Assembly (NCBI GenBank): GCA_000614405.2
Contig: GCA_000614405.2_3612.1
Strand: one strand, 5' to 3'
DNA from: Escherichia coli O157:H7 str. 2011EL-2287
GTDB lineage: Bacteria; Pseudomonadota; Gammaproteobacteria; Enterobacterales; Enterobacteriaceae
Length of the DNA: 64,000 nt
Within the stretch, counting starts at the first letter, position 1. Each line of letters begins with the position of its first letter. Of the stretch, positions 9,501-43,321 are shown in pieces. The notes beneath the pieces were generated by a model. The model saw only the letters and a list, made by a program, of their open reading frames with translations, did no database searches and was not told where the DNA came from. Position numbers and translations under genes: made by a program.

Positions 9501-12202
9501 ACGCTGTTGACCCATACATAAATTTCGCAGCTTTGCATGCGAATATGGATGGTGCAAGGTATCCGTTCGACGTTCCAGTTGCCAATGGGTACAAACGTGT
9601 TGTGATGATCATTAAGTGCGACCTGATAGGTAAACAAGTTCTTGCAGAAAACGGGACATCCACACATCCTTTTGAGATCGCTCTGCACTATCAGTTTGCT
9701 GACTCACCTTTTGCAGGGGATAAGAGAATATCTGATACAGACGCACAGCGTTGTAAGAAAGTATTGTTGGGTGCAGGTTGGTGGTGGTATGAGTTTGATT
9801 TAACAGATAAGTTCACAGATGATACCAAGACTCTCACAGGTATCCGTCTGGATCTTGGTGAGAACATGCACAAAGCTGTTTGTGATGGCACCTACGGTGA
9901 TCCTACAGTATACTTGAAGTATGTCTCTCTTGAGCATCCAGAGGATGCCGTAATCGGTCCTAAACTGAAATTATTCGGCGCATGGATTGCCAAGGATAGA
10001 GTAGGTATGGGTAAGAAAGTGAGAGGATTCCTGATAGATGCAGGAACAGAGGACATGCTGGTTAATGCAGTGTGGCCTACGCTAGAAGGAACTGCCTACA
10101 ACAATGCAGCCAGGTCTATAAATTGGTTCAACATTCACAGAGCTATGTGGACTACCAACTGCTACTTGTGGAGAGAGCTCAACGATCAGGCCTTTGGCTT
10201 TAGTAACGGCAGAAGGATGGCGATCATCTGCTGGACAACACTGCAAAGATGTTATGACCATGACTACGAGATTGGCGGTAGAGCATGGAAAGATATCCGA
10301 GATAGAATCATATACAATTTTGCAGATGATAATGGTGGCGGGGCATATAACTTTGGCACAAGCCGACTTATCCACTTGAACGGATCTTCAGCCTACAAGA
10401 AAGAAGGTTACTCTGGATCCATGATCGAGTGGGGTCTGGTGAAAGATGCTCGCGTATTGATGGGCCAGCAACTTGCTGCCGCAATAGGTCCCAGCGCAGT
10501 GCAGTCGGTTAAACCAGCGTGGTTTGATATTCCATTGTGGTCACCCGGAACACCGGGAACTGCTGCAATCAACCCTACCACTGGGGATCTAGAAATCTCC
10601 TGGGAGGACTTGAAGCAGGTCGGCGGTTGGGACAAAACAGGGTATCAGGTTCAGTGGTGGAGAGCTGATGGATCTTTAGCTGCTGATGAGTTTGTTAAGG
10701 ACAATTTCTACACTATGTCCTCTGCAAAAGCACAGCAATTATTTGGTCAGGCCACTCCGTCAACAATCACCATGTCTATGTGCTGTAAAGACAACAGGAC
10801 TGGAGCTTTGGGGCCAAGGGTTGCTAAGGTTTTCTCAGGTATTAAATGGAATCTTCCTGTTCAAAGTGTTTCATGGAAGCAAATAGGTGATAACAAGCTG
10901 CTGGTTACCCCTGCCTGTCAGTTCAACGCAACTCTTAACGTTAATCCTGCTGTTGCGGCAAACTCAGCTAAAGCTTCTGACTTCTCTGTGTCTAACACCG
11001 CTATGGCAGATGTGAGGAAGATTGACACACTGAACGCCAGAATTACCTGTAAAAACACTTATGGCACATTCCAGATCATCAACAACTTCACAGATGCTGA
11101 TTCTAAGGTAGTGAGGACAGCAAGCCAGACTTTGAGTTTAGGAACTCTGGCCTATGCGGCCCTGATCACTGAACAGTCGGCAACACTCCAAGGAGGTGGT
11201 GTAGGCAAGTCCATTACAACACCTGTGTGGAAGCCAAATGAGTGGGTTGTGTTTGATTTGACTGTGGACTTCTCCAGCGATAATAACTGGACATGGGTAA
11301 GGAATTGTTTGTCACAGTTGATGGGCGGTCCAAGCTCCGTTAGTGATAGTCACGACTCTACTGACCCGAGTGTGTTCCAGGTAGGTAAAACTCACCCAGA
11401 GACTGGAGAAACGTTGCCTGACAGGAAGTATGCTTTGGTTTGCATCTCTTACGGAAAAGCAGATGTCACCTTCTCAGGGACACACACTTATAACGGAACT
11501 TACAACTTCTCAAGGAAGTATAGTCTCAAAGCAGGGAACATTATAGACGAGGTTGGTGTGCTGTATAATCCGGGCAACGGCATAGGGATTGTTGGTGGTA
11601 AACTGCAGATGCAGGAACCTTCTATTACCCCTTCCAACGTAGCCGGGATTAGAAAGACTTGGGAAAGTAGTAATACCAACATTGCAACAGTGGATGCCAC
11701 CACAGGACTGGTAACATTTAAAGCTACTGGGAATGTCACCATAAAGTTTGTAGTTACTGATGATGCAGGGCGCAAAACGTCTTCAACATCTTTTACTGTC
11801 AAACAGATGGCACCACAGTGGAGAATGTGGATAGGTACAGCAACAAACGGGGCATACCCTAATCCGGCAGGTACTTCTGGTATGAAGACTTTCTCTACAA
11901 GCAAACCGATGGAGTACGGCAGCGGTCCTAAGGTAGGGCAGATGGTGTACTTTGGTGCGTATATTCCTGAAATTATAGGGCTTCCGAGAAGTCAGCTTCA
12001 GTTGCTGTTTGGGGCTGGTGTTGACGATCTTGCCACTTTCGGGTATAGCGACAACATCGAGGCTGCAAGGAGTTCAGGATGGGTAGGGTTCAGAATGGAG
12101 CCTGGAAAGGAAGGCAGGATTCTAGGGACAGCCTCTATAGGTGTTATGTTCCCTGGTGACCAGCAGTATCGTCTAGAAGCCTACGCAACCTTTTCTCGTT
12201 AA
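6566..12202 (+). CDS. giant virion/tail-associated protein with Ig-like (Big_2-type) domain
   Basis: 1878-aa ORF; Ig-like segment (TWESSNTNIATVDATTGLVTFKATGNVTIKFVVTDDAG); N-terminal Gly-rich repeats; last gene of late operon. Confidence 0.55.
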   Translation: MLPIPLLKLGRHFLDKRGGIKELAVLSYPIDNSDGTSNTVSYVNSLAILFDDGQLNITGYNRFGECRTGDLDTINYPNEAAWNVDHVWRADRAFVIRTFDNKFFYIGCTAGLIGSEAAGGNDVCVREWTPLPEQIVTGLHLDTHPERLVEVMGGVNNTVWVIAAPEADGMLHLYGSGNNTYGSLHVDKSQHATPVKIGETSESPETGPWKNPRINCEVHDNSVIFGGPNGFWIAGYDFLRNNSKNTLVYPAEHVTLDQFKGIPVGETWKGFMCGPNGAIIATERMHKPDDQQLVNVFYGQDVWGDDTWRSLNITYTHEVIMARGYGTSGIFFNNGTKQYRGFSRNLCNDIGAQSANNSPRANFIHYRALATAKFVEQTEPVSWTESVYFQGIHREGFLGTFCVVNGKLWWSGIPRGSFSGSNNLFGGRLNSQGFTEIPENWYKNVPVDSWGIEDIFDVNGVSNVSNIYIGDTVKMKLKPQPEGATFIIDKIELVNAAGTVVTDANYQFSTNWNHGGANEVVVTQYNRNINRRGLYSIKITYHDKHGTGRTYTTRTLNWNTIVPAYPSNGKWHTVGRNKQFHVNDTVYFGLNGTQPAVEGDTSYMVRLHRMDAGSVTYDVTQEIYDQRRATYDNIVKTQALWEFNPNGKGGKMLQVNEQNGTSLTVHEHPDPWPDPGKPHPGARTLKIVSHDAGYFGIRWEATVRYVDGTTNNIGITLGGTSEDNSLKIAYTPRGISIDNMDVVRNGYGDVNVKVTLGEHLGGERIIMYAFDHDPRTNGTYANQAWSYLINAPEPNTKEFYYGMKRDVCKKTGTHDWIAICVKDERTAWDEPVNRWFIGIPTRSDKYVAEYIVCMGGTNLNMCWNEDVNKYSDYDYMRDYSCNLWFNQTTGYPPRQARVNPAIFTDTQVFLTKQANEVQTFKNNYDPNKWFYNCYGAYFWGPAELPDSGSCFEAATYGSDYIMGQVKKYKMIPGPETLGNAVDPYINFAALHANMDGARYPFDVPVANGYKRVVMIIKCDLIGKQVLAENGTSTHPFEIALHYQFADSPFAGDKRISDTDAQRCKKVLLGAGWWWYEFDLTDKFTDDTKTLTGIRLDLGENMHKAVCDGTYGDPTVYLKYVSLEHPEDAVIGPKLKLFGAWIAKDRVGMGKKVRGFLIDAGTEDMLVNAVWPTLEGTAYNNAARSINWFNIHRAMWTTNCYLWRELNDQAFGFSNGRRMAIICWTTLQRCYDHDYEIGGRAWKDIRDRIIYNFADDNGGGAYNFGTSRLIHLNGSSAYKKEGYSGSMIEWGLVKDARVLMGQQLAAAIGPSAVQSVKPAWFDIPLWSPGTPGTAAINPTTGDLEISWEDLKQVGGWDKTGYQVQWWRADGSLAADEFVKDNFYTMSSAKAQQLFGQATPSTITMSMCCKDNRTGALGPRVAKVFSGIKWNLPVQSVSWKQIGDNKLLVTPACQFNATLNVNPAVAANSAKASDFSVSNTAMADVRKIDTLNARITCKNTYGTFQIINNFTDADSKVVRTASQTLSLGTLAYAALITEQSATLQGGGVGKSITTPVWKPNEWVVFDLTVDFSSDNNWTWVRNCLSQLMGGPSSVSDSHDSTDPSVFQVGKTHPETGETLPDRKYALVCISYGKADVTFSGTHTYNGTYNFSRKYSLKAGNIIDEVGVLYNPGNGIGIVGGKLQMQEPSITPSNVAGIRKTWESSNTNIATVDATTGLVTFKATGNVTIKFVVTDDAGRKTSSTSFTVKQMAPQWRMWIGTATNGAYPNPAGTSGMKTFSTSKPMEYGSGPKVGQMVYFGAYIPEIIGLPRSQLQLLFGAGVDDLATFGYSDNIEAARSSGWVGFRMEPGKEGRILGTASIGVMFPGDQQYRLEAYATFSR

Positions 12203-12218
12203 CAAGAGGGGGTAAATA

Positions 12219-12250
12219 AAAAGGGGCCAAACGGCCCCTTTCTTTTTATA
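12219..12250. terminator. bidirectional rho-independent terminator
   Basis: Hairpin AAGGGGCC-AAAC-GGCCCCTT flanked by T-run on + strand and A-run (T-run on - strand); sits between convergent clusters. Confidence 0.6.
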
Positions 12251-12251
12251 G

Positions 12252-12452
12252 TTAGTAATACTCCCAACATGCACCATCTTCAGACGGCTTGACGCGCTTA
12301 CCTTTATGGTCAACATAGGTATAGCCACAACCTTCACAAATAACAGGTGCTGCATAGCCTTCCTTCCACTGATCCTCAGTGATCAGACCTTCCAAATCTT
12401 TGCAGTCAAAGCCAAACAACTCTTCAGAGCAATCTTTACAAAAATCAGCCAT
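12252..12452 (-). CDS. zinc-ribbon protein
   Basis: CxxC ... CxxC cysteine pairs (CKDC, CEGC) in a 66-aa ORF. Confidence 0.45.
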   Translation of the reverse strand: MADFCKDCSEELFGFDCKDLEGLITEDQWKEGYAAPVICEGCGYTYVDHKGKRVKPSEDGACWEYY

Positions 12453-12455
12453 TTC

Positions 12456-12863
12456 TCAGTCCTCGCATTTAACAAATTTTTCTACAGATCCACCAAGCAC
12501 AGCTTGTTGTTTGATGGCACTTTCTTCATCATAGTGAATAGACTTATGTTCCGTACCTCCAAACTTACCTGTGTGGAAGGTGTGCACCCAAATCTCTTTA
12601 GGAAGGGATTTATTCTCTTCTTCCACCAACTCCCACATTCCCCATAAGTGATCTGTGATATCTCTGATGAAATATCCCTCGCCTAGGTTTGTATTCACAC
12701 TATAAGCTGATTCGTGATCTCCACAAATATAACGGAAGGCTGTGTACTCTTTACCTGGTGTGAAGTGGGTATCCATTAGTATAGCTGTTAAAGAATAAGG
12801 GTCTCGAAAGCCCAAGAACTTTAGTTTAACAATTTCGACATTCACACTTGCAAGATTCTCCAT
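12456..12863 (-). CDS. hypothetical protein
   Basis: ORF tightly packed with neighbours; no motif recognised. Confidence 0.4.
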   Translation of the reverse strand: MENLASVNVEIVKLKFLGFRDPYSLTAILMDTHFTPGKEYTAFRYICGDHESAYSVNTNLGEGYFIRDITDHLWGMWELVEEENKSLPKEIWVHTFHTGKFGGTEHKSIHYDEESAIKQQAVLGGSVEKFVKCED

Positions 12864-13026
12864 GGCAGTCTCCTCTGTTTGGTTGGTGAGATAATCCTAT
12901 ACAAATCTGTTGTTGGTGTCAAGATTAATTTTAAGAGATCTGAGAGGGTATTTTATTCAGGAAGGCAATCGCACAGGGTGGGGCAATTTATGAAGGCACA
13001 GGCCTCGTTTGAGGCCTTAAATTATA

Positions 13027-13407
13027 TTATGACACTTTGACATAGCGCTCTGACAAAGCTGGGAAGCCAAAAGTAGTGCCTATACTACCATAGGCTATCC
13101 ACCATTGAAGTTCATCGTGACACCATTTTCCGATCAGGAAGGTGCTGGGATAGCGGGTCAGTATTTTGGCATAAGCTTTAGGATCTGCATCTTCTGGGAT
13201 AATGATGCTTGGAACATCTTTGTTATGACCACAGCAGCAGTTTAGCGTTTTCAATCCTGCCGCCCATAGACTCATGATAGGCTTAGCCATGCACTTATCA
13301 AGGCACACACGTTTTTTGCCGTCACGGAGCTTTTTAGGCACATCAACGATAACATTTTGATGCTTGGCACCTTTCACTTTCCAATTATAGGATTTACACT
13401 TGCACAT
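13027..13407 (-). CDS. cysteine-rich hypothetical protein
   Basis: Multiple Cys clusters (CKCK, CLDKC, NCCCGHN). Confidence 0.4.
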   Translation of the reverse strand: MCKCKSYNWKVKGAKHQNVIVDVPKKLRDGKKRVCLDKCMAKPIMSLWAAGLKTLNCCCGHNKDVPSIIIPEDADPKAYAKILTRYPSTFLIGKWCHDELQWWIAYGSIGTTFGFPALSERYVKVS

Positions 13408-13434
13408 TTAATCAGTCTCCATCTAGAAAGCAAT

Positions 13435-13608
13435 ACTTTACTTAAAATCTTTGTCACCTATTACGATTGCACGAATCCACTCATTGTGATGTTCAATGGC
13501 GGTAAGGTGTAACATAATGCAGTGATTGTCATTACCAAACACGGTGCGGTAAGCTTTAGCAGCACCATGATATAACTTCCACATCAGGTAATGATATCTT
13601 AGCCTCAT
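13435..13608 (-). CDS. small hypothetical protein (57 aa)
   Basis: Below ORF-track threshold; start codon overlaps stop of upstream gene (ATGA) suggesting translational coupling. Confidence 0.3.
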
Positions 13609-14084
13609 GGCTCTTTCTCCGGTTCAGGATCTGGGTAATCTTCAATAATAAAAGGCCATCCATTACGCTTTGCTTCAGACTTATACTTAATCTCCTTCAT
13701 TGCAAACTCTAATTGATTCTTAGCCGGAATACATGCCGGAGAATCATCAATCCAGATATCTGGGTAGATATCAAACTGAGCCAGATAGGCTGCCTTCTGA
13801 ACACCTCCAGTATAAAACACACCAACATCAAGCTCCTTGCGCCAATACTCAATGTCTACATTGTCTTGAGTAATGAATCGGAAAGTCACAAGGTAGACTG
13901 CCCACCCCTCCTTCTTCAGATCCCTGATCAGGCGGGAGAAGATGAAAGGGCTCGCATTAAACGTTCCATCAAAGTCAATGGCAATGATGTGCGTGCCGTG
14001 GCGAGTCTCATATGGATTGCTTGTGGTAAGATTGCTGTAGTTAAAAGGAACTTCTTCCCCGCAGTAGCTGTAGTCCATATTCAC
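13605..14084 (-). CDS. HAD-superfamily phosphatase
   Basis: HAD motif I IAIDFDGT and distal IWIDD motif. Confidence 0.6.
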   Translation of the reverse strand: MNMDYSYCGEEVPFNYSNLTTSNPYETRHGTHIIAIDFDGTFNASPFIFSRLIRDLKKEGWAVYLVTFRFITQDNVDIEYWRKELDVGVFYTGGVQKAAYLAQFDIYPDIWIDDSPACIPAKNQLEFAMKEIKYKSEAKRNGWPFIIEDYPDPEPEKEP

Positions 14085-14356
14085 ACCTTCTCGTTGATAA
14101 ATTTACGGGCGGTTTGGTGAGTTGTTTCTGCTGTCTTCAGAATGATATTAATCTTATTGTCAAGATCATTCATCTCTGCAGTTAATTCAGGAATCTCTCC
14201 GGCATGCATAGTGAAATCATACATAGACATGCCCAGAATCTCATTGATTCGGCGGTTGCATTCTGCAGCACGCTGGTTCATTTTCCAAGCTAACACCAGA
14301 GCCTCTTGCGTAGCCTCCAGTGCAAAGTCTAATACGTCAGCTTCTTCTTTCGTCAT
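14081..14356 (-). CDS. hypothetical protein
   Basis: Overlapping stop/start with neighbours in leftward operon. Confidence 0.4.
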   Translation of the reverse strand: MTKEEADVLDFALEATQEALVLAWKMNQRAAECNRRINEILGMSMYDFTMHAGEIPELTAEMNDLDNKINIILKTAETTHQTARKFINEKV

Positions 14357-14411
14357 CTCAGTCTCTCTTGTTGTATTGTTGGTAGGTGCATGAACACCTT
14401 ATATCTCACTT

Positions 14412-14978
14412 TTATTCAAACTGCAATAGCAAGTCCACCACCGCACTAGGCCTGTCAACAAATTCCCCAGGCCCACATGCCCATAGAGGGTATCCATCAA
14501 CATACCGCCATATCCAACCTGCAGTGTGAAGCTCAAGCAGGGCAGTGCCGTCCTTACTGTCAACCACCCTTTCCCACAGTGTTGGGCAGCGAAGCTTGAG
14601 AATCGGGTCCCCGCCCTTATACCCGTCCATGTAGATACCCATTGCAAAGTTCAGCATCATCTTTTTGTGCACTGATCTCTTACTGAGAGTGCTCATCACT
14701 TCCTCTTTGTGAATGTTTGTAAGCTTCTCCTTGGCTACCCGCAGATTGTTGCAACCATTGTTCAGCAGATCTTCCAGACACTTGATCCGAAGGTCGTGAA
14801 TGTCTTTGTCGTGTACCGTTGGCACAGGGTCGTAGCGGTATAGCACTGTTGATACAAGGTTGCTCGGGTGTGGGTCTGACAGCAACCCATAACCCCAATA
14901 CTCTTCTGTATCTGAAAGGACAAGACACCCAATGTCTCTGTCAAGCTTTCCTGTGTTGTAAGCCACATTGACCGCCAT
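14412..14978 (-). CDS. hypothetical protein
   Basis: 188-aa ORF in operon context. Confidence 0.4.
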   Translation of the reverse strand: MAVNVAYNTGKLDRDIGCLVLSDTEEYWGYGLLSDPHPSNLVSTVLYRYDPVPTVHDKDIHDLRIKCLEDLLNNGCNNLRVAKEKLTNIHKEEVMSTLSKRSVHKKMMLNFAMGIYMDGYKGGDPILKLRCPTLWERVVDSKDGTALLELHTAGWIWRYVDGYPLWACGPGEFVDRPSAVVDLLLQFE

Positions 14979-14980
14979 GA

Positions 14981-15226
14981 CTATAGCTCCACTAGCAAAG
15001 TGCTTTCAAAGTGCCGTTCATGCAAACCGTTGTAAGGGACCACTTCTACAACGCCATCACGGACATATGGGGCCATCATGGTGGTATAATCTCCAAACGG
15101 GTTGGTATTGTCACTAACCACAACCACCTTCTGCCCTTCCTTGGCAGAGTGCCAAATAGATCTGCACTTCATCAGGTGTTCGAGAGCTCCAGGTAAAATT
15201 TTGTTACGTTCTTTACGGGTCTTCAT
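14981..15226 (-). CDS. hypothetical protein
   Basis: ORF in operon context. Confidence 0.35.
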   Translation of the reverse strand: MKTRKERNKILPGALEHLMKCRSIWHSAKEGQKVVVVSDNTNPFGDYTTMMAPYVRDGVVEVVPYNGLHERHFESTLLVEL

Positions 15227-15672
15227 AACAGATATAGCTCCTTATGAAAGTGGTCTTTTAATTTCTCACTGAGAAACTTCTTGATACCTTCCTCTAAAGT
15301 GTTTTCGATGTAGTCCAGCTTAACTGCTTCGATGGACATATCATAGATCGCCAGCTCTAAGCTGTCAAGTCCCATCATAGCATGAACCATAAGATTTTCA
15401 TCTTCAGATACATTCAGGGGACTTCCTATAACATCTGTAGGTAGGATAGTTTCCCAATTATTCTGGGGGGTAGTTCTCCCACCATCCACTTTACGGCGCA
15501 GTTCGAAGGTGTTCTTAGTGTAGAACACTTCATAAGAAACGATACGACTATCGCTCTCATAATAAACGAAGTTCAGGTAGGAGCCTAGCCGCAGTCGGCA
15601 AACTTCTACCCCAAACCATTGTTTCTTATAAGAATTCAGGCTAATGCTGTCGCATTCACGCTTGCTCAACAC
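15223..15672 (-). CDS. hypothetical protein
   Basis: ORF with overlapping stop/start. Confidence 0.4.
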   Translation of the reverse strand: MLSKRECDSISLNSYKKQWFGVEVCRLRLGSYLNFVYYESDSRIVSYEVFYTKNTFELRRKVDGGRTTPQNNWETILPTDVIGSPLNVSEDENLMVHAMMGLDSLELAIYDMSIEAVKLDYIENTLEEGIKKFLSEKLKDHFHKELYLL

Positions 15673-15688
15673 GGCTATCTCCTTTTTG

Positions 15689-15922
15689 TTAATCTTCGTA
15701 AATCAGGATTTCTGCTTTAGGTTTTCGTGCTTTCAAGTTCAGCTCTATCCAGTGCACCATAGCTGTTTCAAGAAAAACAGCTTGGATGCATCCGTCCTCA
15801 GCGTGCCCCACCAACATAACAAGATCTTCACCTTCGTCATCTGCATCACGAACATACAGAATCTCTCCAGATTCAAAGTCTTTCACAACCTGATTGCTGG
15901 ATAATTTACGAATTTTTGCCAT
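15689..15922 (-). CDS. hypothetical protein
   Basis: ORF in operon context. Confidence 0.35.
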   Translation of the reverse strand: MAKIRKLSSNQVVKDFESGEILYVRDADDEGEDLVMLVGHAEDGCIQAVFLETAMVHWIELNLKARKPKAEILIYED

Positions 15923-15923
15923 A

Positions 15924-16187
15924 TCAGAAACCCTCTAAAAAGCTCTTGTAGAAAATAATTTCAGTATCAACACCAGTCACGATCTTGTCGTTCCTGATTT
16001 CATCGGTAAGATAGGTGTCAAAACGCAGAACCTGTGTGGTATTGTCGCACATCCACTCAGCTGTGACCATGGCGAAAATCTTAGCATCTTCATTATCTGG
16101 TGTAAATGTTACCACCTCACCACATTTAAATTTTTCGATAGGTTGCGTGTTAGCTTTCGGTTCTGCAATAGTGATTTTCGTGGTCAT
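15924..16187 (-). CDS. hypothetical protein
   Basis: ORF in operon context. Confidence 0.35.
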   Translation of the reverse strand: MTTKITIAEPKANTQPIEKFKCGEVVTFTPDNEDAKIFAMVTAEWMCDNTTQVLRFDTYLTDEIRNDKIVTGVDTEIIFYKSFLEGF

Positions 16188-16453
16188 TACTCTTCCTCCA
16201 TAGTTTCACCAAATACTTCGATACGAGCATCGAGCTCGGTTGCTTTCAGCTCCCCAACAAAATATTTTAGTTCTTTCTTGTCCAGATCGTAAGCCCACAC
16301 ACAAGAAGAACATGCAGATTTCACAATCAGCAGCGTAGATACACGACCTGACTCTGTGATCATGCTCACAATGGTTCCCACAGGGAACGTGTTGATAGCT
16401 TTTTTAACTGGGCGTTCAGCTTTAATTACTACCTCTGTTGCCATAAATAACAT
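16187..16453 (-). CDS. hypothetical protein
   Basis: ORF in operon context. Confidence 0.35.
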   Translation of the reverse strand: MLFMATEVVIKAERPVKKAINTFPVGTIVSMITESGRVSTLLIVKSACSSCVWAYDLDKKELKYFVGELKATELDARIEVFGETMEEE

Positions 16454-16459
16454 CCTCTC

Positions 16460-17941
16460 TTACTTAGCGTACTCGATTAATTCCACAGTTTTCCCAAAGC
16501 TAGGGATATAATTTTTATTATACCCTTCGGTGAGAACCCATAAAGTATCGTACTTTTTCCACTTGTTGTCAACAGCCTTTTGTTCAAAGTTATGCTCAAA
16601 GTATAGGTCGGTCAGGACGATGACATCTTTTGCATTCGGTATGTTGGCATCCAGATACTCGAACACGCAAGCAGCTGTTGTGCCCCATGTTGAGTGTACC
16701 TCATAGTTGATCATCTCGTCTATGTTGCCGCGAGTGTATACTTTAACCTCTCCGACTTCAGTTGACCAACAGAACATTGTAACCTTAAACTCTTTATACA
16801 GATTGCACAATCCGGTGATTTCATTGAACATTTTCTTTAAAGTTCTTTGAGAGATCGAGCCAGAAACGTCTAAAGCTACCACAATATCTATGGTGTTTTC
16901 CGGATTACGACCAGGAACAATAACGTGCTGGTTCTTGTTTATAGCCCCAACTTTTCGCATTGTGCTGGTCAAAGACCCAGATCGGCGACCAGGTTTTCTG
17001 TAGGTCAGTTCAGCCTTTCGTTTAGACAACATGCGTTGCTTGATGATGTCTATATAATTAATTACAGGCTTACCTCTATTCTTGACAAACTCACGAACCG
17101 CCTCAGGGCAACGGCCTCCGGAAGCTTGCATTGCTGCCTCCAGCATGTCACCAGAGTCCTGCATGGCCTGATCTTTATCAGATTGACTGATTACAGGTTG
17201 TGGCTGATCATACCCCATAGCCTTTCCAAGATCATCACTGGTGCCACCGTTACCACTCATGTGATCATCGGTTTGTCGCTTATCTTCTTGAGAGTTCTCA
17301 CCTTTACCGCTCTTACTTTTACCGTTATTCTGATCTCTTTGCTTATCAAGAACTGCATAAACGTTCTCAGCAATCCATCCATGAAACTTCATGTCGCAGT
17401 AGCAGCTGGCTAAGAAGCCAAAAGGCTTACCTTTCACGAACGTAGTGCTTTTCCCCTTCGAGAAGAAAACACAAGGAGGTTTGCTAAAGTCAACCACAAG
17501 GCCTGTGTTGATAACGTGATCACAAGCAATATTGAACAGTTCCGGCTCAAAGCTTTTACCACGGACCAGGTGATCACAGATAATATGCCCCACCTCATGC
17601 GACAGAAGAAAGGCCACCTCTTTCACAGATTTGGGGGAATAGAAAACCTCAGCCATCTCAAACTGCTTGTCAGTTAGAGAGGCCTTAAGAATAGCCTTGC
17701 GTTCATCAGCCAATCCCATAATGAACTCAGGGCTGTAATAGATGCGTTTATGGTCGGTTGCCATGGTGGAGCACCATGTGTGGTTTTCTACGAACTGCAA
17801 CCCTGACAGCAGTGTGCCATAAAACGGCAGCTTTTCAAGGAGATACATACGTGCAGCCTGCAACATTCTCAGGGCATCATCTTTCTGTGAGGCAACGATT
17901 TCTGAACTTCTGCTATCCATTAAAACTCCAGAAGGGGCCAT
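16460..17941 (-). CDS. vWA-domain protein with N-terminal HExxH metallopeptidase-like domain (DUF2201-type)
   Basis: HEVGHIICDH zinc-binding motif in N-terminal half; MIDAS motif IVVALDVSGSI in C-terminal half. Confidence 0.75.
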   Translation of the reverse strand: MAPSGVLMDSRSSEIVASQKDDALRMLQAARMYLLEKLPFYGTLLSGLQFVENHTWCSTMATDHKRIYYSPEFIMGLADERKAILKASLTDKQFEMAEVFYSPKSVKEVAFLLSHEVGHIICDHLVRGKSFEPELFNIACDHVINTGLVVDFSKPPCVFFSKGKSTTFVKGKPFGFLASCYCDMKFHGWIAENVYAVLDKQRDQNNGKSKSGKGENSQEDKRQTDDHMSGNGGTSDDLGKAMGYDQPQPVISQSDKDQAMQDSGDMLEAAMQASGGRCPEAVREFVKNRGKPVINYIDIIKQRMLSKRKAELTYRKPGRRSGSLTSTMRKVGAINKNQHVIVPGRNPENTIDIVVALDVSGSISQRTLKKMFNEITGLCNLYKEFKVTMFCWSTEVGEVKVYTRGNIDEMINYEVHSTWGTTAACVFEYLDANIPNAKDVIVLTDLYFEHNFEQKAVDNKWKKYDTLWVLTEGYNKNYIPSFGKTVELIEYAK

Positions 17942-17953
17942 TGGCCCCTGTCA

Positions 17954-18997
17954 TTATTTAACGTGTTTGAAAATACCTGCCAACTCGGTCATTGTCATGC
18001 GGGTGGTCTTCATAAGATCTGTCATAGCTTTCTCCATAATTGGAGATACTACCATAAAGTTTCCTTTAGTGAAACCTTTATTCCAGTCAGTCACCAACAG
18101 CGGTTTAAGTCCAGCTCCGAGACGTTCACCAGTTAAAGCACAGCATTTGCGAATATACGAACCCTTAAATTGGCTGAACGACAGATCAACTTTCATACCT
18201 GCATCGTAGAACGTTTGACAATAGAAAGTGTAAGCCTTAGCAATCTCAACATCATCAGGCAGTGCAGGAACCTCTTCTGCAATCTCCTCTTCGACCTCCT
18301 GAGGCTCTTTTTCTTCTTCAGAGGTCTGTTCTTCAATTTCTTCTGTCACAGTCTCGTTTACGATGTCTGAAATGTGTTTGTTGGCTGCACGATCAGCCAT
18401 GAAATTTTTAAAATCCTGCATCGGTGACATATCTTCTTCCTCTTCGTCAAATAGTGCTAGTTTATCTTCTTCTGTCCCGTATTGCAAGATGAAATCTTCA
18501 AAAGTATAATCACCTTTCAATTTCTCCATACGCTCTTCGCTCAGGTGGAGCATCATCTGCTGGACAATTTTTCGATCAGTTTTGTCTTTAATCAGGATTG
18601 CAGTCTTTTTATCTACCAGACAGTCTTTCAGAGCATTGCACCTCAACCCTACCACACAACAATTGTCAATTGCGTAAGGACCTTCATCATCTATACGCTC
18701 CAGAGATGGGTAGAAAGGATTTCCCAGCCCGTTTTCATCTGTGTGCATGTCAAAAGGTATAAGGGTATAGTCGCATACTCCATCTCCTAAAAGTTTTTTA
18801 CCAAATAGGAGGTATTCTTCCCATGACAGGTCGAACTCTATATCTCGTTTCCGTGCGTTATTCTGTTTGCGTCTATATTTTTTGAGCAAGCGCTCTAACT
18901 CTTCTGGTGTATAATATTTTTCAAGATTCATGAGTCGTCTCTCGTGCTCTGTAAGTGAAGAAATCGTATCAATTGTCTCAACAGATGTCAACATCAA
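17954..18997 (-). CDS. HNH-like nuclease-fold protein with acidic linker
   Basis: SLERIDDEGPYAIDNCCVVGLRCNALK resembles HNH/His-Me finger core; long Glu-rich linker; second related C-terminal segment. Confidence 0.45.
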   Translation of the reverse strand: MMLTSVETIDTISSLTEHERRLMNLEKYYTPEELERLLKKYRRKQNNARKRDIEFDLSWEEYLLFGKKLLGDGVCDYTLIPFDMHTDENGLGNPFYPSLERIDDEGPYAIDNCCVVGLRCNALKDCLVDKKTAILIKDKTDRKIVQQMMLHLSEERMEKLKGDYTFEDFILQYGTEEDKLALFDEEEEDMSPMQDFKNFMADRAANKHISDIVNETVTEEIEEQTSEEEKEPQEVEEEIAEEVPALPDDVEIAKAYTFYCQTFYDAGMKVDLSFSQFKGSYIRKCCALTGERLGAGLKPLLVTDWNKGFTKGNFMVVSPIMEKAMTDLMKTTRMTMTELAGIFKHVK

Positions 18998-19004
18998 AAA
19001 CGTG

Positions 19005-19033
19005 TTGACTTTACTCTAACTCCACAATATAGT
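19005..19033 (+). promoter_or_regulatory. sigma70-like promoter for 19074 operon
   Basis: TTGACT-N17-TATAGT followed by TAGGAG RBS and ATG at 19074. Confidence 0.5.
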
Positions 19034-19073
19034 GCACCCATTCGAAAGAAAACTAACATAGGAGCACTTACTT

Positions 19074-19973
19074 ATGGCAAATCTTAACAGTTTTAGTACG
19101 CGGTGGAAACAGGACATAACAACCAATCTTTCAGCTGGGGACATCCTTTCTGCAATTTACGAGGCTTTAGATGATAAAGCTACTTCAAAAGCGGTTTGTA
19201 CCAACCCACTAATTCCTGTAGTGATGAAGGTTATTGAGCGTAGATTGGTATCTGGGTCTGATAAGTGGACATATTTAGATAATGAAGGACACACCTATTC
19301 CAATGGGTACGTCGATATAAAAGTAGAATACGCGGTATCATACCGCCGGAGCGGTTCTGTAACTTTCAACTTCTCTGGAGGTTTTCGATCTCTGGCTACC
19401 TCACCTTTTGTTTCCTCAGAGGAGAAGTATGAGCTGCCATTTCTTTGGATGATGGCTAACGCGACAGGAAAAACCCCCGTTAGCATCCGAGTAAAATACA
19501 ACTACAACGGATCTAGTAAGATCTGTGCCGAAAGTGTCTCAGCAAGTTTTTATTTTGTGATGGGGGATGGAATCCTCAAACATATAAAGATGTGCGATAT
19601 GCATGATGTTATAAATGAAGTGACTGATAAGAATGTTCTAGTGAAAGACCTCAACAATTTTTATACACCCGGAGACTATTACGTCAGCCGTCCACTGTGC
19701 ATCTTTAATGCCGCACACCCTCTAGGTGAGTATTTGATCGCCAATAGCGATATTGCCAATAACCGCTTCGAGGTAGCAAGAGTTCAGAATGAGGTATTGA
19801 CATCTTGCAAGAGCGGTGATAAGTTTACCGAAGAAGAGATGGGTGTTTTAGAAATGATGGGATATAAGTGTAGCCTTTGGGTAGATGAGGTGTTTAATGA
19901 TTGCATCTATGGACAGGATATTTACCCATTAAAGAAGTATACTGATACAAGTTTAATTTATGCGAGGGTTTGA
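19074..19973 (+). CDS. hypothetical protein
   Basis: 299-aa ORF with RBS, first gene of rightward block. Confidence 0.45.
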   Translation: MANLNSFSTRWKQDITTNLSAGDILSAIYEALDDKATSKAVCTNPLIPVVMKVIERRLVSGSDKWTYLDNEGHTYSNGYVDIKVEYAVSYRRSGSVTFNFSGGFRSLATSPFVSSEEKYELPFLWMMANATGKTPVSIRVKYNYNGSSKICAESVSASFYFVMGDGILKHIKMCDMHDVINEVTDKNVLVKDLNNFYTPGDYYVSRPLCIFNAAHPLGEYLIANSDIANNRFEVARVQNEVLTSCKSGDKFTEEEMGVLEMMGYKCSLWVDEVFNDCIYGQDIYPLKKYTDTSLIYARV

Positions 19974-20248
19974 CTATGATGAAGGCATGTGGTAATGTAT
20001 ATTACGTCGGTGAACATGTTCAGGCAGACAGTGTGTGGAAATCTATTAAGTCCACCACTGACGATGCCTTTCTGAGTGGACTATGTTTCCCCAATCCGGG
20101 AGACATCCTCCCTCATCCTGGAGATTTTGTTGTCAACAAGATGGACGGTTATACCGTGTGCCTGATGGTTGAAAAAATCTTTTTAGACACTAGACACAAT
20201 CACCGTCTTGTGTTAAAATTTCAAGAATGTAAAATGACAATTGCCTAA
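19970..20248 (+). CDS. hypothetical protein
   Basis: ORF overlapping upstream stop. Confidence 0.35.
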   Translation: MTMMKACGNVYYVGEHVQADSVWKSIKSTTDDAFLSGLCFPNPGDILPHPGDFVVNKMDGYTVCLMVEKIFLDTRHNHRLVLKFQECKMTIA

Positions 20249-20618
20249 GGAGACCTTACCGATGTCTAAAGTTACTTATCGTGCAGCTATTTACTGCAAT
20301 GAACACCCAATCAATAATGATGGTCACTGCCTTTTTAAAGAAAATCAATTGGGCTGTATTGTCCTCCCTGATGAAGGGAAAGGTTATCTGATTGCATTGA
20401 CAGGGTTTGAACCTGAAGCTCTGGAAGCCAATCTGGACTACCTGGTAGAAGAGGGTGCTGCAGACCTGGTTGCCAATGGCTTCTCCATAAGCCTTGACGA
20501 AGTGGAGCGCTTCATGGGCAATTACCGTGTAGTGCGTGAGTTTACTATCGAGGTGGAAACTCCAGAGTGGGGTAGCCATGAAACTAATGCCGAAGAAAAA
20601 GAAGAGGAGGTAGAATAA
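20241..20618 (+). CDS. hypothetical acidic protein
   Basis: ORF with RBS AAGGAGA. Confidence 0.4.
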   Translation: MPKETLPMSKVTYRAAIYCNEHPINNDGHCLFKENQLGCIVLPDEGKGYLIALTGFEPEALEANLDYLVEEGAADLVANGFSISLDEVERFMGNYRVVREFTIEVETPEWGSHETNAEEKEEEVE

Positions 20619-20875
20619 TGAAAGTGCAGATCTTGACTAATGCCGAGAAGATGTTTATTGAAGATACACCTTTTGAAGCTGGTGAGCTACAGTTCATTTA
20701 TTTTGTTGACTTAGATAAGGTGTTCCCTGCACTGAATCTTGGTCTGGATGAAGTTCCTCATAAGGTTTTGTGCCAAGTTGTTCGTGCATTAGCGGCAGAT
20801 GGGGAGTTCCACACCCTTGAAGATGTCCAGACCTACGGGTATCTTGAACTACAACGAGAAGAAGAGGTGGACTGA
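20618..20875 (+). CDS. hypothetical protein
   Basis: ORF, start overlaps upstream stop. Confidence 0.4.
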   Translation: MKVQILTNAEKMFIEDTPFEAGELQFIYFVDLDKVFPALNLGLDEVPHKVLCQVVRALAADGEFHTLEDVQTYGYLELQREEEVD

Positions 20876-20877
20876 TA

Positions 20878-21258
20878 ATGGCCCTGTGGAAGACAACAGT
20901 TGACCTTCATGATCAGTGGTTAGGACGCATCACTGAAGACGGGAAGCTAGTGGAGTGGGACAATAAGCATGTTAGCGAGTTGGCAAGTATTGTGGCTGGC
21001 AAGTTACGCTCCAAGTTCCCTGAACAACTGGATCCTGATAGTTCAAAGTTCGATCCTGAGTTGGAGGATGTTGTATACTACTTCGACACCGTTGATGACT
21101 ACGACGCGTGGTTTGCAGCACGGGAACTTTACCCACAAGGCTCTGCTATGCGTCAGATGGAAGAAGATTATCCTCCGTGTGAGCAATTCAATAGTGCAAT
21201 GACTTGCCTCTATGATTGGGCAGATAAGAACCTTGTCTGGATTCGGACTGCATTTTAG
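20878..21258 (+). CDS. hypothetical protein
   Basis: ORF in operon. Confidence 0.4.
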   Translation: MALWKTTVDLHDQWLGRITEDGKLVEWDNKHVSELASIVAGKLRSKFPEQLDPDSSKFDPELEDVVYYFDTVDDYDAWFAARELYPQGSAMRQMEEDYPPCEQFNSAMTCLYDWADKNLVWIRTAF

Positions 21259-21302
21259 TGGGCAGGAATGGCGGCAAGGATGCTGCTTAAGGAGTAGTAG
21301 AG

Positions 21303-21572
21303 ATGTTATACCAGCAATATGAACTTCGTGCAGAAAAAGAGTTAAATTTTGACAAAGATATTCACAGATATTATTATGGGAAAGTTAGAGGGCAAGCAAG
21401 AAAGTGTACTCCAACACTCTTTTATGCCAGCAGACGACTAGCGCCAGAAGAGGCAACAGCAGAAAGGGTTGCGTACAACTGGAGAGTCACGTATGATATT
21501 GACAGATTCGATGTGATATCTGTTTTGGAAAACTTTGAAAACACTTACACACAAGTAGAGGACTTTTACTAA
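21303..21572 (+). CDS. hypothetical protein
   Basis: ORF in operon. Confidence 0.4.
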   Translation: MLYQQYELRAEKELNFDKDIHRYYYGKVRGQARKCTPTLFYASRRLAPEEATAERVAYNWRVTYDIDRFDVISVLENFENTYTQVEDFY

Positions 21573-22756
21573 TGTCAAGAAACGTATTCGAAAGTGGTCA
21601 AATCACTGTCCGTGAGTTGCCAGCTATTATTCAGTTTGCCCAACGTCATAGCCGATCTGTCCTAATTTTGGGACCAATGGGTGTGGGTAAAAGCCAGGTG
21701 ATGAAGCAGATCGCTGATAATATGTTCGGTGAGCGAGATGACAACCTTGTTGACGTGCGACTGTCAGATAAAGATCCTGCCGACTTATCTGGGCTACCTA
21801 TCCCTGTAGAAGCGGATGGAACTACACGTACAGTGTTTGCAATTCCAGAATTTTGGCCTGCGGATCCTGACTGGAGCGGAATTATCTTTCTGGATGAGCT
21901 CACTCATGCAGATAACTACCTGCAAAAGGTTGCAATGCAAATTATGCTTGACCACAAGTGCGGCACCTATGCATTCCCTAAGGGTTCTGTTTTTGTGGCT
22001 GCGGGTAACCGTTCTACAGATGGTGCGGTTCTTTCGGCGCTCGAAGCCCCTCTGGCTAACCGTTTTATCATTGTAGAGGTTACAAGCAATGCAGAGGTGT
22101 TTATTGAGGACTACGCATTCCTCAACGGGGTTCACTCCTCTGTGATTGGGTATCTGAAAAGAGTTCCATCAGCTATTGATAATTATGAGGCTATGGCTGA
22201 GATTAATTGTCCATCTTTTGCCACACCACGATCTTGGGTTGCTGCATCTGACATCTTGCACGATTTTGACAGCGGTATTATTTCTGACGCTATGGCCCGT
22301 GTTCTTCTGCAAGGTGCTATTGGTCACACTGCAGCGGTAGAGATCTGGACATACCACACCAAGAAACGCAATTTACCGGAAATCGGTCGGATTATGGCAG
22401 GTGGCTGCAAAGAATACATGGGTCCTAAGCAGCCAGACATTTTGTGGATTCTTGGATCTGAAGGTTGTATCGCTATTCGTAACATGATGGAAAATGCAAG
22501 TATCTCAGACGAAGATCTTGTCAGCTGCGTGGCAAACTTCCTAGATTTCCTTTGGGAAAACTTCAAGGACGAGAACCGAGATTTTGTATTCTCAGTCTTT
22601 ATGGCGATGATGAAACCTAATGCCTTAGGAAATGCCTTGCTTATCGGTAAAGGGCGTGACAAGATTGTTGCTCAGCTGATCAAAGCATACCCAAACCTGA
22701 TGAAGATTGTAAAAGAGTTTGGTGAAGAGTTTAGCGCCATTTTGGCTAAAGCTTAA
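21572..22756 (+). CDS. MoxR-type AAA+ ATPase
   Basis: Walker A GPMGVGKS, Walker B IIFLDELTHA, AAA_5-like organisation. Confidence 0.75.
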   Translation: MSRNVFESGQITVRELPAIIQFAQRHSRSVLILGPMGVGKSQVMKQIADNMFGERDDNLVDVRLSDKDPADLSGLPIPVEADGTTRTVFAIPEFWPADPDWSGIIFLDELTHADNYLQKVAMQIMLDHKCGTYAFPKGSVFVAAGNRSTDGAVLSALEAPLANRFIIVEVTSNAEVFIEDYAFLNGVHSSVIGYLKRVPSAIDNYEAMAEINCPSFATPRSWVAASDILHDFDSGIISDAMARVLLQGAIGHTAAVEIWTYHTKKRNLPEIGRIMAGGCKEYMGPKQPDILWILGSEGCIAIRNMMENASISDEDLVSCVANFLDFLWENFKDENRDFVFSVFMAMMKPNALGNALLIGKGRDKIVAQLIKAYPNLMKIVKEFGEEFSAILAKA

Positions 22757-22765
22757 GGGGGTTGT

Positions 22766-23146
22766 ATGGCTAAAGTAGGTAAGCGGGGAAACTACCTGGT
22801 GGTATTGACCGAGGAGCCGGAGAAGGAGTACGAATGCAGCTCCACTTGCGTGATCGATATCCGAGAAAAAGATGTAGATGAAATCTGGTTTAAAATATTG
22901 GACGCTTGCGATAGCAGTGATTATTTCTTCATCTATGTCAACGATAAGGCTGGGTTCTTCCATGACGACGGAGAGTTGCCGTATGAAATCTATGAACTTG
23001 TAGAGGCTTGCCATCGTGGAGATGCGGAGTTGTTTGGCTTACGGCTGAAAAGCGGTAAATTCTTCTATCAAGATGAGTGCATGAATCTTCATAACTTTGT
23101 AGAGGGAACTTGCAACGATGGAGAGATTTTGGCACACTACGATTAA
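22766..23146 (+). CDS. hypothetical protein
   Basis: ORF with RBS, ends before terminator. Confidence 0.4.
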   Translation: MAKVGKRGNYLVVLTEEPEKEYECSSTCVIDIREKDVDEIWFKILDACDSSDYFFIYVNDKAGFFHDDGELPYEIYELVEACHRGDAELFGLRLKSGKFFYQDECMNLHNFVEGTCNDGEILAHYD

Positions 23147-23156
23147 TTTCTAAGAC

Positions 23157-23187
23157 CTCCCCCGCTTCGGCGGGGATTTTCTATTTG
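23157..23187 (+). terminator. rho-independent terminator
   Basis: Hairpin CCCCCGC-TTCG-GCGGGG followed by ATTTTCTATTT. Confidence 0.55.
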
Positions 23188-23195
23188 GAGTTATT

Positions 23196-23696
23196 GTGAA
23201 AATTAAGATCTTTGCTATTATTTTGAGCGCATTTTTATCGCTGCCTGTTGTTGCAGCACCAAAACAAAAAGTATATCATACTTGCAAGCCCTCAGATACT
23301 AAGGAAAACATTCTGGCATGCAATATCTACAGGGAGGCTAGAGGGGATGGCACGATGGGTATGCTGGCATCCGGGTTTGCCACACTAAACAGGAAATCTC
23401 ACCCCAAATACCCAGACACTATAAGAAAGATTGTCTACCAACCTAACCAGTTTTCGTGGACAAACCACGGCAAAACTTTTAAGGTGACAGAAAAAGATTC
23501 ATGGGATCACGCTAAAAGTCTTGCAAAGATGCTTCTAAAGGTCTATAATAACAACCATGTTGCATACATGGCTATGGACATAACAGGTGGAGCAACACAC
23601 TACCATACAACCAAAGTACGACCGAAATGGGCAAAAAAGATGCAGAGGACAGCTCAATTCGGGAGTCATATCTACTACAAGGAGCGCAATAAATGA
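23196..23696 (+). CDS. secreted SleB-like cell wall hydrolase (Hydrolase_2 family)
   Basis: GTG start with RBS; N-terminal signal peptide (MKIKIFAIILSAFLSLPVVAAP); motifs NIYREARGD, ATLNRKSHPKYPDTI, QPNQFSW. Confidence 0.7.
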   Translation: MKIKIFAIILSAFLSLPVVAAPKQKVYHTCKPSDTKENILACNIYREARGDGTMGMLASGFATLNRKSHPKYPDTIRKIVYQPNQFSWTNHGKTFKVTEKDSWDHAKSLAKMLLKVYNNNHVAYMAMDITGGATHYHTTKVRPKWAKKMQRTAQFGSHIYYKERNK

Positions 23697-42873: not shown

Positions 42874-42922
42874 TACTGTAGGGGGAGATCTAATCTCTCT
42901 TTTCAAGAAAGGGTCGGGCCAC

Positions 42923-43321
42923 ATGATCCACGGTTGTAACTGCTTTCACACAATGGGTGCAGGCATAGCGAAAGACATTGCCCGTGAGTTCCCTCAAGCA
43001 CTGGCAGCCGACAAAGAGACTGCTTATGGTAATCTAGACAAGCTGGGTATGTTTTCTTGTTGGGAGCATTTTGCCAAGAACAGGGCCGTATATGGAATCA
43101 ACCTGTATACCCAGTTCTACCCAGGGCCCAATGCTGAATACTTCTCAATCATGAAAGGTTTTGAGCGAGTCAACGAGGTATTCAAAGGTGTGTCATTGCC
43201 GTTCTACATTCCTAAAATCGGATGCGGTATTGGCGGTCTAAAGTGGGAACATGTAGAAGATGTAATTAATCTTGCAACCACAGATATTGATGTGGTTGTA
43301 GTAGAGTACAAAAAGTGTTGA
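42923..43321 (+). CDS. macro-domain (ADP-ribose binding/processing) protein
   Basis: HGCNCFHTMGAGIAKDI and IPKIGCGIGGLKW resemble macro-domain Gly-rich loops; start uncertain (ORF track frame opens at 42767). Confidence 0.55.
   Translation: MIHGCNCFHTMGAGIAKDIAREFPQALAADKETAYGNLDKLGMFSCWEHFAKNRAVYGINLYTQFYPGPNAEYFSIMKGFERVNEVFKGVSLPFYIPKIGCGIGGLKWEHVEDVINLATTDIDVVVVEYKKC

Follow-up and report, generated by a model that had tools for sequence, protein, structure and literature searches.

Between positions 12252 and 18997 of the 64,000-nucleotide stretch of DNA analysed here (the window), taken from an assembly of Escherichia coli O157:H7 str. 2011EL-2287, a leftward series of mostly unidentifiable genes (g1 to g14; Table 1) raises the question of whether it is one operon serving a single pathway or a unit of some other kind. 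The locus is the already published leftward "genes 11-26" block of an rV5-type E. coli phage, an ordinary feature and not a new pathway: in a megablast search, positions 12000-19200 matched 122 GenBank phage records, all of them Vequintavirus and 114 of them with a query coverage of 80% or more; Escherichia phage navn was the best match (99.1% identity; rV5, 96.7%), and in the annotated records rV5 ORF11-ORF26 (ORF, open reading frame) correspond one to one with the genes of the window. The block is likely to be a leftward Vequintavirus transcription unit, probably an early one, composed as a mosaic of accessory and host-takeover genes and not as a pathway, with g5, g9, g13 and g14 as its core. 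Its one interesting component is g13, a vWA-zincin protein that belongs with an ATPase encoded outside 12252-18997.

Genes 11-26 were proposed as one of the four transcription units of rV5 (Kropinski et al. 2013, PMC3606486), and the window shares with rV5 the locus, the gene order, the predicted promoters P011, P020 and P025 and the terminators t026/t027. It differs in that g13 is a single intact gene, which in the rV5 record appears as two ORFs, ORF12 and ORF13, with a 1-nt gap, and in that the rV5 annotation has an extra overlapping ORF23. The ORF listing gave 14 co-directional ORFs, all on the minus strand; the array reported by an earlier sequence-only reading is therefore real, but its implied count of 12 genes with seven unknown ORFs becomes 14 genes with nine unknowns. 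The ratio of nonsynonymous to synonymous substitution rates (dN/dS) lies between 0.00 and 0.20 for each of the 14 in comparisons with rV5, with phage VB-EcoM-WM (WM; the more divergent of the two) or with both, which indicates that all of them, including the small g4, are real genes under purifying selection. The coding density of the block is 95.7%, and ten of the 13 junctions are overlaps or gaps of at most 16 nt, the remaining three gaps being 30, 55 and 163 nt. On one side the block is flanked by the 1878-aa Ig-like protein gp27, and on the other by a divergent arm with the 'putative fucosyltransferase' gp10, small ORFs and the 'MoxR ATPase' gp4. Across the other genera of Vequintavirinae, homologues were seen for g5, g9, g13 and g14 only. 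The profile and structure searches that the sequence-only reading had proposed as a check now assign four of the 14 genes to a family and leave the other ten with no functional match.

The description of g13 as a vWA-metallopeptidase was borne out by matches to the Pfam families DUF2201_N (8e-29, 101.5 bits, cut-off 23.2) and DUF2201 (VWA-like; 3e-11, 43.9 bits, cut-off 26.4). The protein has an HEVGH motif at residue 115 and the elements of a metal ion-dependent adhesion site (MIDAS), namely DVSGS at 358, T421 and D445; H115, E116, H119, D358, S360, S362, T421 and D445 are invariant in all 15 of the phage and bacterial homologues aligned (22-63% identity). Relatives of g13 were found by tblastn in 672 phage records, including those of N4-like phages (as 'N4 gp25-like') and jumbo phages; a PDB sequence search with g13 found no relative. 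An AAA+ ATPase gene is located directly upstream of the g13 homologue, on the same strand, in the N4-like phage EE36phi1, an N4-like metagenomic contig, the jumbo phage 121Q, Aeromonas phage 4L372D, the Sulfurivermis fontis chromosome and gammaproteobacterial metagenome-assembled genomes, that is, in all six contexts examined outside the Vequintavirinae. The ATPase of the window, encoded in the divergent arm, is homologous to all the phage ATPases that are paired with g13 homologues, and it matches the AAA/AAA_5 protein of Sulfurivermis (BLASTP, E = 8e-37, 32% identity over 250 aa). From these adjacencies, g13 is predicted to be the partner of the 'MoxR' AAA+ ATPase. The sequence-only reading had set a MoxR module apart from the accessory cluster; because the ATPase adjoins g13 homologues elsewhere, that boundary cuts a conserved two-gene system.

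A MoxR-vWA pair with an N-terminal metallopeptidase has been described in group 2.2 jumbo phages (Iyer et al. 2021, PMC7824862). These pairs and the N4 pair of gp24 (AAA+ ATPase) and gp25 (vWFA) have the same zincin-linker-vWA architecture as g13, whose homologues include gp564 of 121Q and, in EE36phi1, the gp25-like protein, and the ATPases are homologous too. The N4 and jumbo phage pairs are adjacent, whereas the Vequintavirinae pair occupies opposite divergent arms: in rV5, PVP-SE1, Av-05 and Mydo, representing four genera of the subfamily, the ATPase and g13 genes are 3.6-4.6 kb apart and flank divergent promoters. A further difference is the conserved small gene g9 after the peptidase gene, found in Vequintavirinae only. 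Both PHROGs and the navn record give the name 'ATPase' to an 89-aa ORF on the plus strand (21303-21572), the stop codon of which overlaps the ATPase start. This ORF lacks any Pfam domain, and its product may be a small partner protein in its own right.

The label 'HNH endonuclease' that RefSeq and PHROGs attach to g13 (phrog_1314 and phrog_3118 label both g13 and g14) is clearly wrong for a protein with an HExxH zincin and a vWA domain, and it has been carried into many phage records. The division of this gene into ORF12 and ORF13 in rV5 corresponds to a 1-nt indel relative to the intact g13 (L001, 7483-8944), and is probably a 454 sequencing error in rV5.

The linkage of g13 to g9 is also conserved. 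In PVP-SE1, Av-05 and Mydo, the g9 homologue (23-27% identity) directly follows and overlaps the vWA-metallopeptidase gene, and in Vequintavirus g10-g12 are inserted between the two. This conserved linkage suggests a functional tie, in which g9 may be a lineage-specific accessory or adaptor of g13. The PHROG label 'tail protein' for g9 is unsupported; g9 is absent from the virion proteins identified by mass spectrometry (MS). In the WM record (L017, PQ014731, 4698-5160) a g9 homologue is present but unannotated, with 93.6% identity and a dN/dS of 0.07.

The leftward co-directional unit ends, as had been read from the sequence, at a bidirectional rho-independent terminator, which also ends the rightward tail/Ig-like gene. 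The further claim of a single operon is not supported, since promoters are predicted within the block and two of them are conserved. Three sigma70 promoters within genes 11-26 (P011, P020 and P025) were predicted in the supplement to the rV5 paper (Kropinski et al. 2013, PMC3606486). In an alignment of the window, rV5 and WM, P025 keeps an invariant -35 hexamer TTGACA and a -10 hexamer TAGGAT or TATGAT around a variable spacer, with an invariant hairpin, GGCCTCAAACGAGGCC (12998-13013), upstream of it; the hexamers of P011 are likewise kept and its spacer is likewise variable. P020, which the rV5 record places in the 3' end of g7, is less convincing as an internal promoter. A single unit with several promoters and one terminator is accordingly the prediction from these signals, and its expression is inferred to be early from the consensus sigma70 promoters and from analogy with T4. 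P011, on the minus strand, and the divergent P010 (19005-19033, plus strand) have their -35 hexamers within one 23-bp palindrome at 18987-19009 (GTCAACA-N9-TGTTGAC), which was flagged as terminator-like in a scan and could serve as an operator for joint control of the two early arms.

The right edge of the cluster requires a correction, its location being otherwise correct: 18963-18991 is not coding sequence but the P011 promoter, which falls inside the longest ORF call for g14. The gene starts at ATG 18931, which is conserved together with a GAGAG ribosome-binding site, whereas WM does not keep the ATG at 18994 further upstream. In the following alignments with T4 Srd, g14 residues are numbered according to the longer, 347-aa call (the 325-aa numbering plus 22). 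Residues 30-165 align with residues 4-133 of T4 Srd (BLASTP, E = 8e-7) and residues 271-317 with residues 30-80 (E = 1e-3), indicating that g14 consists of two copies of the Srd N-domain, both halves being aligned to the N-terminal region of that protein. The gp11 of rV5 had previously been called an Srd homologue (Kropinski et al. 2013, PMC3606486). Among PHROGs, g14 matches a 'decoy of host sigma70' (phrog_4592, 2e-14), Srd (phrog_1400, 5e-9) and, remotely, endonuclease VII (1e-10) and an 'endonuclease' family; no Pfam family was matched at E <= 0.01, HNH and Endonuclease_7 included, and a PDB sequence search returned nothing. Compared with T4 Srd, to the N-terminal domain of which it is homologous, g14 has a second and more degenerate copy of the N-domain in place of the Srd C-terminal half (approximately residues 134-248), and adds an acidic linker of roughly 100 residues; the two share an invariant R, C-x-Y, ER-x-D, Y, N and N. 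The T4 srd gene is located in the dda/modA/modB region.

The product of g14 had been described as an HNH-like protein with a long acidic linker. The linker is real (34 D/E and 8 K/R in 104 residues) and the domain is HNH-derived, but it is Srd-like and has no conserved histidine. The residues invariant across five genera and T4 are R29, C53, Y55, E78, R79, D81, Y86, N90 and N99; C53 is the only invariant cysteine, and ER-x-D is found where endonuclease VII has DHDH. The RefSeq label 'HNH endonuclease' is doubtful for g14 because the catalytic histidine and the two CxxC zinc pairs are not conserved, and the protein is, judging by these residues, probably not a nuclease. According to a passage of PMC7430671 that cites Qi et al. 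2015, T4 Srd acts as a stimulator of RNase E, and no other tested function in the family is given there; T4 Srd is also described as having first been postulated to be a decoy of sigma70/sigmaS.

The remaining core gene, g5, probably encodes a minimal capless phosphatase of the HAD family, as its motifs and weak fold matches suggest. HAD motifs I (DxDxT), II (T/S), III (K) and IV (DD) occur in canonical order, and D37, D39, T41, T67, R69, K97, D113 and D114 are the same in all 11 homologues of one alignment (27-66% identity). Five close relatives were counted in one homologue search and seven related loci in the locus search; a full HMMER search yielded 930 family representatives, and in a set of 147 sequences D37, D39, R69 and K97 remain invariant, with T41, T67, D113 and D114 kept in at least 90%. 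In the AlphaFold2 (AF2) model of g5, each HAD motif is placed at the canonical strand end or helix start. Because the model is poor, its PDB matches in Foldseek (E >= 0.013), the best of which include AphA and the CopA P-domain, are only suggestive; the named structural neighbours in BFVD are described as 'HAD-like' (E as low as 1e-6), PNKP-phosphatase-like or acid phosphatase. The 147-sequence profile matches PDB entry 2obb (E = 6e-3) with DFDGT aligned, and the best Pfam matches of 2obb, below threshold, are HAD_PNKP and Hydrolase; an 11-sequence profile matched nothing in PDB or Pfam, and PF06189 is weakly matched by five of the 147 relatives. The name HAD phosphatase, given from the sequence, thus stands on four invariant motifs and weak fold evidence, and not on any Pfam HAD model. 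Capless (C0) HAD phosphatases such as the class B acid phosphatase AphA and the phosphatase domain of T4 polynucleotide kinase have the same four motifs in the same order as g5, and a beta-alpha-beta core like the one predicted for g5, which differs from them in matching no Pfam HAD model, in having no kinase domain and in having a catalytic core of only about 90 residues.

The label 'polynucleotide kinase' on the g5 homologue in PQ014731 is rejected, as g5 has only one domain, about 157 aa long, and hhalign against T4 Pnk gives a probability of 1.7%. In Paraglaciecola GD virus 1 the g5 homologue overlaps an RNA ligase gene, and one protein (P0098) joins a g5-like domain to a cREC_REC domain for cyclic-phosphate processing (2.7e-20). 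A role of g5 in the processing of nucleic-acid ends is a weak lead, since the comparison with T4 Pnk was negative, a search of the 64-kb window gave no homologue of an RNA ligase, and the one ligase named in the text of the rV5 paper is gp88, a DNA ligase (Kropinski et al. 2013, PMC3606486). Relatives of g5 (P0206, P0209, P0214, P0118 and P0098) show that the family also occurs as tandem two-domain proteins and, once, as the cREC_REC fusion just mentioned, and several BFVD structural neighbours of g5 are XkdF-domain fusion proteins. Far from the cluster, at 42878-43315 on the plus strand, the window has a homologue of the macro-domain or 'putative phosphatase' genes of Av-05, Mydo and PVP-SE1.

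Table 1. Genes and signals of the leftward block, with the ATPase gene of the divergent arm (window positions).
Feature	rV5 counterpart	Length (aa)	Position	Strand	Remarks
Terminator	t026/t027		12220..12241	both	bidirectional, rho-independent; stem AAAGGGGCC-AAAC-GGCCCCTTT, T-runs on each strand
g1	ORF26	66	12252..12452	-	CxxC-(30)-CxxC zinc-ribbon pattern by inspection; phrog_2210; Felix O1 homologue; dN/dS 0.00
g2	ORF25	135	12456..12863	-	dN/dS 0.00-0.04
Promoter upstream of g2	P025		12894..12922	-	sigma70-like; TTGACA-N17-TAGGAT, within the 163-nt g3-g2 gap
g3	ORF24	126	13027..13407	-	Cys-rich, CxC...C...CCCGH
g4	ORF22	56	13438..13608	-	genus-specific; dN/dS 0.16-0.20
g5	ORF21	157-159	13605..14084	-	start ATG 14078 or GTG 14084; DFDGT, T67, K97, DD113-114
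g6	ORF20	91	14081..14356	-	genus-specific
g7	ORF19	188	14412..14978	-	rV5 P020 in 3' end
g8	ORF18	81	14981..15226	-	phrog_4868
g9	ORF17	149	15223..15672	-	homologues in other Vequintavirinae genera
g10, g11, g12	ORF16, ORF15, ORF14	77, 87, 88	15689..16453	-	genus-specific ORFans
g13	ORF12+ORF13	493	16460..17941	-	zincin, polar linker, vWA with MIDAS; N4 gp25-like
g14	ORF11	325	17954..18931	-	two Srd-like (degenerate HNH) domains and acidic linker
Promoter before g14	P011		18963..18991	-	TTGACA-N17-(TG)TACGAT
AAA+ ATPase			21572..22756	+	MoxR-type; outside block, in divergent arm; predicted g13 partner

The ten genes other than the core are genus-specific, and no functional match to any of them was found in Pfam, NCBIfam, PHROGs or PADLOC; for the region as a whole, a PADLOC run on ten proteins gave no match. 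The zinc-ribbon and Cys-rich labels proposed for two of them agree with CxxC...CxxC in g1, recognized by inspection, and with the conservation of C2, C4, C39, C57-C59 and H61 in g3, and on these patterns g1 and g3 are probably metal-binding. For g3 there was no Pfam match, the PDB sequence search was empty, and a poor AF2 model (predicted local distance difference test score, pLDDT, 66) had no PDB match in Foldseek below E = 0.4; the label TYW3 methyltransferase on its homologue in PQ014731 was not reproduced, there being neither a Pfam match nor any TYW3 among the best 50 Foldseek matches. The product of g2 seems to be built from two modules, one (residues 12-81) matching phrog_30425 and the other (residues 91-133) common to phrog_3955, phrog_11192 and phrog_36005; the C-terminal module, of 45 residues, recurs in three otherwise unrelated PHROGs. 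In the divergent arm, the gp10 gene (19074-19973, plus strand), named 'putative alpha 1-3 fucosyltransferase', has no match in Pfam, NCBIfam or PADLOC and only a genus-specific PHROG with no assigned function, and its label looks unfounded. An Rfam scan of 11500-23500 found no RNA family. The records that match the locus include 16 of 'Campylobacter phages' (MG0656xx), C. jejuni being the stated host for 15; seven of these are among the best 20 matches listed, at 96-98% identity, and the host assignment looks mislabelled or the result of contamination.

As a working scheme, host sigma70 RNA polymerase would read the block early, starting at the divergent promoter P011 and at one or more promoters inside the block, and would stop at the terminator after g1. 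Among the products of the core conserved across the subfamily, g14 would most likely bind a host protein through its Srd N-domains derived from HNH/endonuclease VII, by analogy with T4 Srd and RNase E, rather than cut DNA. The product of g13 would act as co-chaperone and effector partner of the MoxR-type ATPase, which may remodel the vWA domain or load it onto a target protein via the MIDAS site, so that the HExxH domain could then cleave the loaded target; g9, which travels with g13, may serve as a lineage-specific accessory or adaptor. Candidate substrates of g5 are nucleotides or nucleic-acid 3'-phosphate ends. Counter-defence or host takeover by the block is plausible.

Several observations weigh against this description of the block. 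The ATPase and g13 genes of the window are not adjacent, being 3.6 kb apart on opposite strands, and the ATPase has no match to the Pfam MoxR families of the AAA_3/AAA_5 type, only one to AAA_14 at 20.7 bits, below the cut-off of 27; a PDB sequence search with the ATPase found only a Clp-type P-loop. The C-terminal Srd-like repeat of g14 was detected at E = 1e-3 via T4 Srd alone, and a direct BLASTP comparison of the two domains of g14 was not significant (E = 0.29-0.67). The product of g5 has no Pfam match, its NCBIfam and PDB sequence searches were also empty, and its AF2 model has a pLDDT of only 63.5. The scheme accounts for none of the ten genes outside the core. No transcriptome of any rV5-like phage was found in the literature, so that timing and promoter use are predictions. 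The role proposed by Iyer et al. (2021, PMC7824862) for such a MoxR-vWA pair is, moreover, virion assembly or processing and not host takeover.

This last proposal, extended to the present locus, would make g13 and the ATPase, perhaps with g9, a chaperone or processing system for virion assembly, and part of the block a misplaced late function. Its authors, who dealt with group 2.2 jumbo phages, drew an analogy to the MoxR-vWA tail-assembly system of ATV (PMC7824862), and it is consistent with the structural genes that flank the 121Q pair, with the position of the block next to the tail/Ig-like gene gp27 and with the PHROG label of g9. In rV5-like phages, however, the pair straddles consensus sigma70 promoters, has Srd-like, rII, helicase and methylase genes as its neighbours, and does not follow the T4-late-like motifs that precede rV5 genes 27-66 (PMC3606486); in N4-like phages it lies between RNAP2 and nucleotide-metabolism genes; cellular homologues occur in non-viral contexts; and the 19 virion proteins identified by MS include none of gp11-26. 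A morphogenetic role is therefore considered unlikely, and an early, non-structural role of the ATPase-g13 pair is favoured because of the gene surroundings with their sigma70 promoters, the N4-like placement and the absence from virion MS. A more specific version of that role, in which the ATPase and g13 form an early ATP-driven targeted protease that cleaves a specific host protein for takeover or counter-defence, in phages from N4-like to rV5-like to jumbo, with g9 as the lineage-specific adaptor in Vequintavirinae and the pair co-regulated from the palindromic divergent promoter, is speculative and at present improbable as a whole. No experimentally known function for the pair in any phage was found in the literature searched, nor was a paper on rV5 and MoxR or on DUF2201 and MoxR, and the genes of the block are not covered by CRISPRi-ART and transposon studies.

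The sequence-only reading had seen in the phosphatase, nuclease-fold and metal-binding proteins a single operon whose products cooperate in one pathway of nucleic-acid modification, repair or counter-defence. The tight co-directional packing and the one terminal terminator agree with such an operon, and the RNA ligase neighbour and the cREC fusion of g5 relatives point in the same direction, but the idea is very unlikely: the internal promoters are conserved, ten of the 14 genes are absent from the sister genera, the 'nuclease-fold' protein g14 lacks the catalytic histidine and the zinc cysteines, g13 belongs with a gene outside the block, and no RNA ligase was found in the window, as described above. 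That no pathway could be named was itself a sound judgment, and the rV5 paper likewise names none for genes 11-26. Alternatively, most of g1-g4, g6-g8 and g10-g12 may be inhibitors of host immunity that are quickly gained and lost, making this part of the block an anti-defence island; the genes are small, genus-restricted and inserted between conserved genes, their location behind predicted sigma70 promoters suggests early expression, and a 'Lar-like restriction alleviation protein' is annotated at the equivalent place in Av-05. However, searches of Pfam, NCBIfam, PHROGs and PADLOC revealed no function for these genes and no homology to an anti-defence protein that has been characterised, and the high conservation within the genus and very low dN/dS are unlike those of typical arms-race loci, which leaves this suggestion rather doubtful. 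A mosaic of accessory and host-takeover genes, arranged around a conserved core and read from several promoters, is the preferred description of the block.

As a feature, a locus described in 2013 and almost unchanged in more than 110 sequenced phages matters little, and what its analysis offers lies in its components. Several database labels can be corrected: 'HNH endonuclease' is wrong for g13 and doubtful for g14, 'tail protein' is unsupported for g9, and 'polynucleotide kinase' and 'TYW3' were not reproduced. The product of g5 represents a large family of minimal HAD phosphatases, comprising about 930 clusters at 50% identity, that is mostly uncharacterised. The product of g13 is to be studied jointly with the ATPase across the divergent promoter, as a pair whose conservation extends from bacteria to N4-like and jumbo phages. 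If the pair were indeed an ATP-driven protease acting on host protein, that role would replace the one in virion assembly that has been proposed for it.

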